Shown here: piece by piece, positions 7,725 to 8,330 of the stretch
How positions within the stretch are numbered: position 1 is the stretch's first letter
Layout: the number at the start of each line of letters is the position of its first letter
Origin: Gemmata obscuriglobus
GTDB taxonomy: Bacteria; Planctomycetota; Planctomycetia; Gemmatales; Gemmataceae
NCBI RefSeq assembly: GCF_008065095.1
Contig: NZ_CP042911.1
Location: 1,260,001-1,292,000, forward strand
Direction: 5' to 3'
Length of the DNA stretch: 32,000 nucleotides
Program-made: the position numbers and the translations under genes
Notes under the pieces: generated by a model
The model's database searches: none
Told to the model about the DNA's origin: nothing
The model's input: the letters and a program-made list of their open reading frames with translations, nothing else

Positions 7725-7805
7725 TTCCCCTCATAAGGGAGTGGCCGCTGGTTCGAATCCAGCCCCCTCGACTACCGGGGGGTAGCTCAGTGGTAGAGCA
7801 CTCAA
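7725..7805 (+). ncRNA. Circularly permuted tRNA-like module 1 (Met/Ile2-like, anticodon-loop sequence CUCAUAA)
   Basis: Elements in order:
- anticodon arm TTCCC-CTCATAA-GGGAG (7725-7741)
- T-arm GCTGG-TTCGAAT-CCAGC (7747-7763)
- 3' acceptor strand CCCCTCG (7764-7770)
- 5-nt loop ACTAC
- 5' acceptor strand CGGGGGG (7776-7782), giving 7 bp including one G-U
- D-arm TAGCTCAGTGGTAGAGCA (7783-7800)
No CCA is encoded. Confidence 0.65.
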
Positions 7806-7903
7806 AGTGTCAATCGCCTGCACGACTCGTGCGGCCCGCTCGCCCGGCGTTCATCGCACTGATTCGGAGACAGCCCGTACCCTACGGCGGAAGCGTACAA
7901 ACC

Positions 7904-7978
7904 CTTTTAATCTGTTGGTCACAGGTTCGAATCCTGTCCCGCCCTCTGGGCGGGTAGCTCAATCGGTAGAGCAACGGA
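7904..7978 (+). ncRNA. Circularly permuted tRNA-like module 2 (Lys-like, anticodon-loop sequence CUUUUAA)
   Basis: Elements in order:
- loop CTTTTAA (7904-7910)
- anticodon-stem 3' strand TCTGT (7911-7915)
- variable region TGGTC
- T-arm ACAGG-TTCGAAT-CCTGT
- 3' acceptor strand CCCGCCC (7938-7944)
- 3-nt loop TCT
- 5' acceptor strand GGGCGGG (7948-7954), a perfect 7 bp
- D-arm TAGCTCAATCGGTAGAGCA
- anticodon-stem 5' strand ACGGA (7974-7978), which pairs with TCTGT
The rejoined sequence closely resembles bacterial tRNA-Lys(UUU). Confidence 0.7.
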
Positions 7979-8063
7979 CAGTTTCACCGCTTCACGAACT
8001 TGTACGGGCCTATTTTCAGACAACCGGGGCCAGTCCGTACCCCACAGGGGAAGCGTACAAACC

Positions 8064-8151
8064 AATAAGTTTCAGCACGCGAAAGCGTATGCGGGTTCGA
8101 CTCCCGCCGGCGCCCGCACGGGCGCCGTGGCGAAACGGTATACGCACTGAA
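8064..8151 (+). ncRNA. Circularly permuted tRNA-like module 3 (type II, Leu-like; loop AAUAAGU reading UAA at positions 34-36)
   Basis: Elements in order:
- loop AATAAGT (8064-8070)
- TTCAG (8071-8075)
- long variable arm ACGC-GAAA-GCGT
- T-arm GCGGG-TTCGACT-CCCGC
- 3' acceptor strand CGGCGCC (8108-8114)
- short loop
- 5' acceptor strand GGCGCCG (8121-8127), extendable to 8-9 bp
- Leu-type D-arm TGGCGAAACGGTATACGCA
- CTGAA (8147-8151), which pairs perfectly with TTCAG. Confidence 0.65.
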
Positions 8152-8239
8152 GAGTTTCAACCGCTTCCCGGACTTGTACGGACCGCTTTCTCGAACACCG
8201 AACCAACCCGTACCCGACGTCCGCCGGCGTACACACTTT

Positions 8240-8330
8240 ACGGTCTCGAAAACCGTCGATCGGGCGACCGATCCGTGGGTTCGAATCCCACCTCCTCCAC
8301 CTCGGGGGAGTGGCCGAGTGGTTGAAGGCA
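8240..8330 (+). ncRNA. Circularly permuted tRNA-like module 4 (type II, Ser-like, anticodon-loop sequence CUCGAAA)
   Basis: Elements in order:
- complete anticodon arm ACGGT-CTCGAAA-ACCGT (8240-8256)
- variable arm GATCGG-GCGA-CCGATC
- T-arm GTGGG-TTCGAAT-CCCAC
- 3' acceptor strand CTCCTCC (8292-8298)
- 5-nt loop ACCTC
- 5' acceptor strand GGGGGAG (8304-8310), giving 7 bp with one G-U
- Ser-type D-arm TGGCCGAGTGGTTGAAGGCA (8311-8330). Confidence 0.7.

Follow-up and report, generated by a model that had tools for sequence, protein, structure and literature searches.

A probable tandem array of four YrlA-class Y RNAs next to a divergent Ro60-like gene in Gemmata obscuriglobus

Introduction

The YrlA RNAs are a class of bacterial Y RNAs that mimic tRNA; binding by the Ro60 ortholog in vivo and modification by TruB/DusA also count among the marks of the class. 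A YrlA gene lies next to a Ro60 gene on the same strand, and its product combines a stem that joins the two ends of the molecule with a T arm, a closed acceptor arm (AS), a D arm and, often, a variable (V) arm (PMC4201824). In their survey, Chen et al. (2014) searched only genomes with an annotated TROVE protein, recovered 355 YrlA-like sequences from 276 genomes and warned that dimeric tRNAs give YrlA-like false positives (PMC4201824). According to the YrlA literature, the acceptor stem of the Mycobacterium smegmatis YrlA is 7 bp long, and this RNA is cleaved by RNase P and tailed with CCA in vivo. The Y RNAs of M. smegmatis and Deinococcus radiodurans are processed from a precursor upstream of the rsr gene. 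The locus described here lies in a 32-kb stretch of the Gemmata obscuriglobus contig NZ_CP042911.1 (the window, positions 1-32000; G+C content 69.7%). The segment 7677-8392 of its plus strand very probably encodes four tandem Y RNAs of the YrlA class, which are the presumed partners of a divergent Ro60-like protein encoded directly downstream.

In a preliminary description the region had been read as a row of four circularly permuted tRNA-like modules, and both the permuted layout in a bacterium and the array of several mimics were regarded as undescribed. Neither part of this novelty holds. Published work already likens YrlA to circularly permuted tRNAs, and the numbers given by Chen et al., 355 sequences in 276 genomes, imply that more than one YrlA per locus is already known. 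Two features absent from that description, the closing helices of the Y RNA type and the Ro60-like nature of the adjacent gene, are central to the present analysis.

Results and Discussion

All T-arm, D-arm, acceptor-strand and anticodon-stem strings quoted in the preliminary description are present in the window at the positions given there. The T loop GGTTCGAATCC is found at 7750, 7924 and 8278 and its variant GGTTCGACTCC at 8094, and the D arms begin at 7783, 7955, 8128 and 8311. Between the T arm and the D arm of each module lie two complementary 7-nt acceptor strands. All four acceptor stems are 7 bp long, with closing loops of 5, 3, 6 and 5 nt in units 1 to 4, respectively. For comparison, 80 related loci with a protein identity of 43-82% were collected from a scan of one genome per species; together with the window they make up 81 sources, and single loci are denoted L001, L003 and so on. 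A covariance model, R1, which comprises the variable loop, the T arm, the closed 7-bp acceptor hairpin and the D arm, was built from 47 modules. This model matches the 32-kb window exactly four times, always on the plus strand and with E values of 3e-19 to 5e-15: at 7742-7800 in unit 1 (71.8 bits), 7916-7973 in unit 2 (65.3 bits), 8086-8145 in unit 3 (57.9 bits) and 8270-8329 in unit 4 (59.5 bits).

Base pairing was counted in an alignment made with R1 (A3), which holds 148 distinct best matches from the window and the related loci. In the closed acceptor helix 97.2% of the cells are paired, with two-sided changes at all seven pairs, and in the whole structure 93.3% of the cells pair, compared with 38-55% when the partners are slid by 1-3 columns; these pairing and covariation figures are flattered by the fitting of A3 to the model. 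In a MAFFT alignment of the module cores (A2) the register was wrong for the acceptor 5′ strand and D stems of the class II modules, and A3 was used for the pair counts instead. The acceptor complementarity is kept through compensatory changes in related genomes, as expected from the preliminary description, and the R1 matches together with this covariation confirm the layout of a 3′ half, a short closing loop and a 5′ half. The closed acceptor helix, and hence the permuted order, is real and conserved.

Canonical tRNA genes were not detected by ARAGORN anywhere in the 32-kb window, and no Rfam family reaches its gathering score there. The Rfam tRNA model gives 25.7 bits (threshold 29) across 7949-8115, a match that spans two units and contains insertions of 54 and 49 nt. 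Here the model has combined the D arm of one unit with the T arm of its downstream neighbour into a "tRNA" with a very large insert. Artefact matches of this kind exceed the threshold in L021 (2601-2762), L016 (2551-2713) and L045 (2600-2742) and stay below it in the window. Such a match, the false positives that Chen et al. obtained from dimeric tRNAs and the fact that low-scoring R1 matches elsewhere are junctions of this type would all fit a decayed tandem tRNA cluster, or a chance juxtaposition of the T arm of one tRNA with the D arm of the next. The modules themselves do not behave in this way. In the conventional gene order the acceptor strands pair at only 3-5 of 7 positions, in line with the failure to pair already noted for them, and ARAGORN finds no gene. 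The acceptor hairpins covary across more than 140 modules, and spacing, terminal helices and synteny are conserved across phyla. The ARAGORN result, the acceptor covariation and the terminal helices effectively refute a decayed cluster, the probability of which is next to nil.

Each of the tRNA-like cores is the distal end of a self-contained RNA closed by a conserved, covarying terminal helix. The two strands of this helix carry a pair of motifs, 5′-CGYRC-CC.AC and 5′-RACUY-GYRCG, in which the pentamers are paired with each other and the flanks are invariant and unpaired. On the plus strand of the window the 5′ motif (C[GA][TC][AG]CCC.AC) occurs at 7695, 7876, 8036 and 8209, and the 3′ motif ([AG]ACT[TC][GA][TC][AG][CT][GA]) at 7824, 7997, 8171 and 8377. 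As a 5′/3′ pair around a tRNA-like core the motifs occur exactly four times in the window, and these four occurrences are the four units; stray copies are unpaired. The pentamers are CGTAC/GTACG in units 2-4 and CGCAC/GTGCG in unit 1. Both paired motifs are present in 91 of 94 modules from 58 sources. Among the 94 modules the pentamers covary: CGTAC/GTACG is found 49 times, CGCAC/GTGCG 10 times, CGTGC/GCACG three times and CGCGC/GCGCG twice, in addition to G-U variants. Modules with both motifs have a median length of 150 nt (range 133-215), and the four units of the window are about 135-190 nt long.

Unit 1 (7677-7851), like the other three, lies on the plus strand. It has a type I tRNA-like domain and is delimited by the R1 match, the Rfam YrlA match, the motif pair and its orthologs in L003 and L001. 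The terminal helix is formed by 7677-7699 and 7829-7851 and includes CGCAC (7695-7699) paired with GTGCG (7829-7833). This closing helix extends to 23 bp and is visible in the minimum free energy (MFE) fold and as a spurious match to MIR918. It encloses an anticodon-like hairpin at 7725-7741 (TTCCC-CTCATAA-GGGAG), a variable loop at 7742-7746, the T arm at 7747-7763, the closed acceptor hairpin at 7764-7782 and the D arm at 7783-7800. In L003 the closing loop of the acceptor hairpin of unit 1 (about 2280-2320; columns 116-152 of alignment A5) contains a 37-nt insertion that looks capable of forming a hairpin. Large inserts are thus accommodated in the closing loop, and recognition of the acceptor end as a free end is improbable.

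Unit 2 (7873-8009), also of type I, is defined by a match to the full Rfam YrlA model and by R1, and its MFE z-score is -3.39. Its terminal helix is formed by GCCCGTAC (7873-7880) and GTACGGGC (8002-8009). The stem TCTGT (7911-7915) / ACGGA (7974-7978), which is the equivalent of an anticodon stem in the style of YrlA, runs on into the Y stem. The T arm is located at 7921-7937, the acceptor hairpin with its 3-nt loop at 7938-7954 and the D arm at 7955-7973. Unit 3 (8033-8183) was identified by R1, the Rfam YrlA match and the motif pair, and has a Leu-like class II body. It is closed by GTCCGTAC (8033-8040) and GTACGGAC (8176-8183), and its stem TTCAG (8071-8075) / CTGAA (8147-8151) likewise continues into the Y stem. 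A variable-arm hairpin at 8077-8088 is followed by the T arm at 8091-8107, the acceptor hairpin at 8108-8127 and a D arm with a 3-bp stem at 8128-8146. In the orthologs of unit 3 (L001, L003, L005, L006, L008 and L009) the V hairpin is kept and the strand that had been read as the anticodon loop is not.

Unit 4 (8203-8392), with a Ser-like class II body, is defined by the MFE fold, RNAalifold and R1. The terminal helix (8203-8213 / 8382-8392) is followed by a second helix (8220-8229 / 8367-8376), a complete anticodon-like hairpin at 8240-8256 (ACGGT-CTCGAAA-ACCGT), a V-arm hairpin at 8258-8273, the T arm at 8275-8291, the acceptor hairpin at 8292-8310 and the D arm at 8311-8330. The MFE fold recovers every arm (z-score -2.72) and places extra hairpins at 8334-8345 and 8353-8365. 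RNAalifold applied to nine orthologs of this Ser-type unit returned 49 pairs, 17 of them with compensatory changes, which cover the terminal helix, the second helix, the anticodon-like hairpin, the V arm, the T stem and the acceptor stem.

By analogy with known Y RNAs, the terminal helix is a putative Ro60-binding site. A GGUCCGA motif of Y RNAs is quoted by Chen et al. (2014; PMC4201824). The sequence of the ends looks closer to the metazoan and Deinococcus type than to the published YrlA motif GNCGAAN0-1G. The helix CGUAC-CC-GA / CUUGUACG is presumably comparable to GGUC-C-GA / UUGACC of the metazoan and Deinococcus Y RNAs, a likeness that we treat as a lead and not as a test. In Yrn1 and Yrn2 of D. 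radiodurans and in the metazoan Y RNAs, too, a bulged terminal helix is conserved on both its strands. Deinococcus likewise has several Y RNA genes ahead of rsr, and these are co-transcribed together with a tRNA. Yrn1 differs from the present units in the order of its arms and has no full D arm, the metazoan Y RNAs have no tRNA-like domain, and the Rfam Y_RNA model has no match in the window.

The partner of the four RNAs is presumably encoded by the gene at 8455-10197 on the plus strand. Its start codon lies 63 nt downstream of unit 4, and between the two an intrinsic terminator was found by a terminator scan at 8398-8424 (plus strand). The terminator consists of an 8-bp GC-rich stem, ACGGCCGC/GCGGCCGT (8398-8417), followed by TTTCTTT; the start codon follows after 30 nt. 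The hairpin is kept in L003, L009 and L010. The 580-aa product combines a ring region of helical repeats at its N-terminus with a vWA domain at its C-terminus, the latter bearing the metal ion-dependent adhesion site (MIDAS) motif DKSGSMS at residue 371. It was modelled with AlphaFold2 from a 24-sequence alignment (predicted local distance difference test score, pLDDT, 75.7; predicted template modelling score, pTM, 0.67). When this model was compared with the PDB by Foldseek, Ro60 was the only protein matched along the whole model: the top nine matches are all Ro60 proteins (human, Xenopus and Thermus-phage), with about 600 aligned columns, E values of 2e-8 to 5.5e-6 and template modelling (TM) scores of 0.47-0.61, and everything ranked below them is an isolated vWA domain. 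In homologs of 60% identity the Pfam family PF25045, "Ro60 vWA domain", scores above its cut-off. The predicted fold, together with these Pfam matches, indicates that the gene encodes a very divergent protein of the Ro60 fold. More than 2,500 homologs are found at E<=1e-3, and most of them are annotated as "hypothetical" or "vWA domain-containing".

The corresponding annotated G. obscuriglobus protein, C1280_28060 (437 aa), is 100% identical over 75% of the 580-aa open reading frame. The start at 8455, rather than that of the shorter annotation, is backed by the homologs and by the conserved N-terminus MxMxxxE.DLRL. Two segments of the protein stand apart. Residues 419-450 (9709-9804) form a perfect-register 16-aa tandem duplication inside the vWA domain, and residues 123-161 (8821-8937) are a basic low-complexity insert. 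Both have low confidence in the model and are mostly missing from the homologs of about 500-535 aa. A PADLOC search with the Ro60-like protein returned nothing useful.

The Rfam YrlA model (RF02553), run permissively, matches unit 2 over its whole length (7884-7996, 51.6 bits, E 1.6e-10), unit 1 with 41.4 bits (E 1.5e-7), unit 3 with 18.7 bits and unit 4 with 15.5 bits. The suggestion that the modules are YrlA-type mimics rather than translational tRNAs is thus supported by significant sub-threshold YrlA matches and by the Ro60-fold gene directly downstream. The likeness to the YrlA RNAs of Salmonella Typhimurium and M. smegmatis (PMC4201824; bioRxiv 10.1101/312249) extends to the position on the same strand as a neighbouring Ro60-type gene, the long stem formed by the 5′ and 3′ ends, the order of T arm, closed acceptor-like stem-loop and D arm, and the nucleotides of the tRNA tertiary contacts. 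Some YrlA RNAs also have long, class II-like variable loops, the M. smegmatis YrlA shares the 7-bp acceptor stem, and several Y RNAs per locus are made from one precursor, as we propose here. In the Salmonella YrlA the stem beside the D arm runs on into the Y stem, as it does in units 2 and 3.

Differences from YrlA are evident as well. The published YrlA "lacks the anticodon loop", whereas units 1 and 4 add a complete anticodon-like hairpin. The D and T stems of YrlA are "nearly invariant", whereas the D arms of units 3 and 4, like their V arms, are plainly of Leu/Ser class II type. Four tRNA-like units in a row, all with a 7-bp acceptor stem, also set the locus apart. Other mimics of tRNA shape with a T arm and an acceptor stem are known from viral tRNA-like structures and from the two-piece (permuted) transfer-messenger RNA (tmRNA), in the genes of which the 3′ acceptor part likewise lies upstream. 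Unlike tmRNA, the units have no tag reading frame and no free CCA end. The matches to the Rfam models tmRNA_permuted (23.8 against a threshold of 47 bits) and beta_tmRNA (21.9 against 84) are short and cover the T arm and acceptor stem only.

The arrangement of the RNAs and the protein gene was followed through the 81 sources. The related loci belong to Gemmataceae, Isosphaeraceae, Pirellulales and Phycisphaerae/Tepidisphaeraceae, with a few in Chloroflexota, Abditibacteriota and metagenome-assembled genomes of Deltaproteobacteria/Desulfobacterales. Junctions between canonical tRNAs, which R1 picks up at low score, were masked before counting, and a module cut-off of 45 bits was applied. At least one module on the same strand upstream of the Ro60-like gene is present in 57 of the 81 sources, mostly 70-900 nt away; 28 sources have one such module, 21 have two, six have three and two (the window and L003) have four. 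In the window the cores end 126-655 nt upstream of the gene start, inside the distance of about 4 kb from a Ro60/Rsr gene that is expected of YrlA RNAs. All four units recur in unchanged order in L003 (77% protein identity), and units 1-3 are present in L001 (Gemmata sp. IIL30). Only two relatives were found in IMG/VR, and their layout is identical. The RNA-then-gene order is not universal. In Ktedonobacterales, Chloroflexia, Herpetosiphonaceae and Abditibacterium modules are found on the opposite strand upstream, or downstream of the operon; such sites are L064 118-2071 and L079 66-2000 (both on the minus strand), L068 6469-6969, L071 7334-7541 and L065 5788-5844.

The position of the array raises the question of whether it acts mainly in cis, as a leader of the Ro60-like mRNA. 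Its tRNA-like structures would then sense a factor, for instance the Ro60-like protein or some protein that binds tRNA, and govern read-through of the terminator at 8398-8424, rather than work in trans as free RNAs. In favour of such a role are the shared strand of array and gene, a strong terminator 30 nt ahead of the start codon and the conservation of the RNA-then-gene order. A promoter of the sigma-70 type was found neither upstream of the array nor between the array and the gene, although planctomycete promoters may differ from this consensus. Each unit closes on itself, however, and the number of units varies from one to four without a change in the gene. Modules located downstream or on the opposite strand are found in L064, L068 and L079, which represent some Ktedonobacterales, Chloroflexia and Abditibacterium. 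Those Y RNAs encoded ahead of rsr that have been characterised mature into stable RNAs. A role confined mainly to cis is therefore distinctly unlikely, and the two roles are not mutually exclusive.

The preliminary description saw in the four modules mimics of Met/Ile2(CAU), Lys(UUU), Leu(UAA) and Ser(CGA) tRNAs that keep their anticodon loops. When the modules were rejoined in the conventional order, ARAGORN indeed called Met(cat), Lys(ttt), Leu(taa) and Ser(cga), a result in which the anticodon arm is only weakly tested. In a brute-force control all plausible joins around the T-arm/acceptor/D-arm cores, 288,816 constructs in total, were submitted to ARAGORN; many break points were called as tRNA, with dozens of different anticodons per core. 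ARAGORN is thus permissive for joined constructs: its calls vouch for the T, acceptor and D arms but not for the anticodon arm. Because so many anticodons were returned, the joins were dropped as proof of anticodon identity and explicit checks of geometry were used instead.

Units 1 and 4 contain a full hairpin of 5 bp and 7 nt at exactly the place of the anticodon arm, with loops of the form C-U-NNN-A-A. In unit 1 the hairpin is separated from the T stem by 5 nt (TGGCC, like positions 44-48 of tRNA), and in unit 4 it precedes the 18-nt V arm. A perfect hairpin at these fixed offsets is found in 28 of 94 modules. Its loop has T at the position of U33 (position 2) in all 28 cases, a pyrimidine at position 1 in 25 and a purine at position 37 (position 6 of the loop) in 27. 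The stem covaries, as TTCCC/GGGAG, TTCCA/TGGAG, TTCCG/CGGAG, TTCGG/CCGAG and TTTCC/GGAAG. A generic search that accepted every perfect 5-bp/7-nt hairpin located 3-26 nt from the T stem on its 5′ side was rejected, since it succeeds at 19.7% of random positions; given this background, only fixed-offset hairpins with the conserved TTCNN/NNGAG stem are meaningful.

The middle triplet of the loop is not conserved, and takes at least 14 values among the 28 hairpins. The loop of unit 1 is CTCATAA in the window, TTTAGGA in L003 and TTGCTCA in L001, with nearly identical flanks, so that its triplet changes from CAT to TAG and GCT. The Ser-type units have CGA three times, CAA, TTT, GAA and CCA. Units 1 and 4 thus possess the architecture of an anticodon loop but no conserved anticodon. 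In units 2 and 3 a hairpin of this kind is missing. Their UUU and UAA "loops" (CUUUUAA and AAUAAGU) are one strand of a conserved internal loop, GCGTACAAAC…(T)TAA, and at this place the orthologs have CAGTTAA, ACGTTAA or CAATTAA, or else ACACATC or CCTCAGA, with no conserved triplet. The AATAAGT of unit 3 also lacks U33. What stands of the proposed isoacceptor mimics is therefore the anticodon-like hairpin of units 1 and 4.

No CCA is encoded, and the discriminators are variable or wrong for the isotype: A, A, T, G, T, T, A, G and T in the Ser-type orthologs, and mostly C (C73) in the Leu-type units. Compared with 108 canonical tRNAs from the related loci, the rejoined modules show 67-73% identity and a weak isotype preference. 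The closest canonical tRNA of the unit 4 module is Ser(tga) (0.72), and that of the unit 3 module is Leu(cag) (0.67), tied with Ser(tga) and Leu(taa). An assignment of isotypes by similarity was therefore rejected at the isoacceptor level, as identities in this range support likeness at the level of class only. We infer that the modules mimic the shape and class of tRNAs (two of type I, one Leu-like and one Ser-like of class II) and not their decoding identities; triplets and discriminators as variable as these speak against a decoding function.

These data also bear on whether the units are genuine circularly permuted or split tRNA genes, the products of which would be Met/Ile2, Lys, Leu and Ser tRNAs that function in translation. 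Such genes would be processed at the acceptor loop by RNase P, trimming and CCA addition, with or without a circular intermediate. The ARAGORN calls on the rejoined sequences, the 7-bp length of all acceptor stems, the canonical C-U-NNN-A-A loops of units 1 and 4 and the RNase P cleavage and CCA tailing of the M. smegmatis YrlA are compatible with this. However, the triplets differ between close orthologs, and mistranslation would result from a Ser-type body with TTT, CAA, GAA or CCA. An anticodon hairpin is missing from units 2 and 3 and a conserved triplet from their orthologs, the discriminators are unconserved or wrong for the isotype (C73 in the Leu-like units), ARAGORN is permissive, and the units are locked by a Y-type terminal helix beside a Ro60-like gene. 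The bulge-helix-bulge (BHB)/endonuclease pathway of Cyanidioschyzon is not known in bacteria. The permuted tRNA genes of Cyanidioschyzon merolae and other algae (PMC3978253) resemble the units in having the 3′ half ahead of the 5′ half and a short stretch of sequence between the two acceptor strands. True tRNAs with conserved anticodons arise from the algal genes through a circular intermediate and a BHB-dependent splicing endonuclease, whereas the triplets of the present units are not conserved, a long conserved and putatively protein-binding helix occupies the break point, and the host is a bacterium. Taken together, it is very unlikely indeed that the units are translational tRNA genes.

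The assignment to the YrlA class is preferred because of the Ro60-fold gene downstream, the synteny, the YrlA matches, the paired end motifs and the covariation of the helices, and also because the triplets and discriminators vary, no CCA is encoded and the YrlA literature provides a precedent. Several results weigh against it. All modules of the window and of 20 related loci stay below the gathering score of RF02553 (69 bits), and the published YrlA motif GNCGAAN0-1G is absent as such from the units. In the Ro60-like protein Pfam detects neither TROVE (PF05731) nor any other family beyond noise at E<=10, and a phmmer search against the PDB returns nothing relevant. A profile of the Ro60-like family places a phage TROVE protein on top in the PDB, with an E value of only 0.17. 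In the absence of a TROVE or PDB sequence match, the Ro60-like label rests on the predicted fold. Finally, the genes for PNPase and rtc, known partners of Ro60, do not lie adjacent to the locus in the window.

We propose that the four units would be transcribed as one precursor ending at the terminator at 8398-8424, which would then be processed to the individual Y RNAs in the manner of M. smegmatis and D. radiodurans. With its terminal helix each RNA would bind the Ro60-like ring, and its tRNA-shaped domain would serve as a gate, as a site where tRNA-binding factors dock, or as both. Since all acceptor stems have 7 bp, the feature that makes the M. smegmatis YrlA a substrate for RNase P and CCA addition, an opening of the units into two-piece, CCA-ended mimics is plausible by analogy.

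In many relatives further genes accompany the Ro60-like gene. A conserved protein of about 300 aa (geneB), without a Pfam or PADLOC match, is encoded directly after it in about 47 of the 80 relatives, and a ThiF/E1-like protein of about 213 aa (PF00899, E 2.7e-32) is also encoded downstream in 38 of the 80. Examples of the two genes are found at 4730-5785 and 6164-6799 in L013 and at 4731-5585 and 5982-6623 in L035, respectively. Neither was found by tblastn in the window (1-32000) or in L001-L012. Relatives from Tepidisphaeraceae, Phycisphaerae and Pirellulales carry 4-17 canonical tRNA genes in an array that immediately precedes the modules and the Ro60-like gene and shares their strand: L049 37-2133, L045 99-2060, L034 48-1875, L040 183-1855, L041 7-772, L037/L038 488-1742, L036 1507-1879 and L057 35-518. 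Such arrays are absent from the window and from the Gemmataceae loci L001-L012. Long tRNA arrays are known in Planctomycetes (PMC8421152). Literature searches returned no report that links tRNA arrays to Ro60, and nothing relevant on Ro60 or TROVE together with Planctomycetes or ThiF.

The protein of about 300 aa, the ThiF/E1-like enzyme and the upstream tRNA arrays of the relatives suggest a further possibility, namely that the locus is part of an undescribed tRNA-centred Ro60 system. In such a system near-complete cloverleafs mounted on Y-RNA stems, with 7-bp acceptors, U33/R37 loops and freely changing triplets, would act as decoys, sensors or guides for tRNA-targeting enzymes, for example anticodon nucleases or modification and adenylation enzymes. 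We regard this extension as tentative and rather unlikely.

The remaining neighbours in the window have no evident link to the Y RNA locus. Upstream of the array lie genes for a PLD-family protein of 881 aa (4761-7406, minus strand) and an FHA-GGDEF diguanylate cyclase (3380-4480, plus strand), and a DUF1559/prepilin-type protein is encoded downstream (10414-11547, minus strand).

Conclusions

The locus is best read as an unannotated, unusually tRNA-complete form of the known YrlA/Ro60 system and not as a new kind of tRNA gene. It points to a large clade of Ro60-like proteins, with more than 2,500 homologs, that is missed by standard annotation, as neither Pfam TROVE nor Rfam YrlA is detected at threshold. 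Earlier surveys began from TROVE-annotated genomes; this Pfam-invisible clade probably lay outside the search of Chen et al. and was probably missed. The arrays are also open to miscalling as intron-containing tRNAs or pseudo-tRNAs, as is seen from the artefact matches in L016, L021 and L045.

Studies of Y RNA/Ro60 systems cover few bacteria, and no partner is known for the tRNA-like domain of these RNAs. The present units carry tRNA mimicry beyond the described YrlA RNAs, with anticodon-type hairpins, class II bodies of the Leu and Ser type, 7-bp acceptor stems and up to four distinct units per locus. Whether they are subject to RNase P cleavage, CCA addition and aminoacylation, and which factor reads the tRNA-like domain, can be tested in the culturable Gemmata obscuriglobus. 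If the locus does belong to a tRNA-centred system, the Ro60-like ring would be tied to tRNA surveillance.

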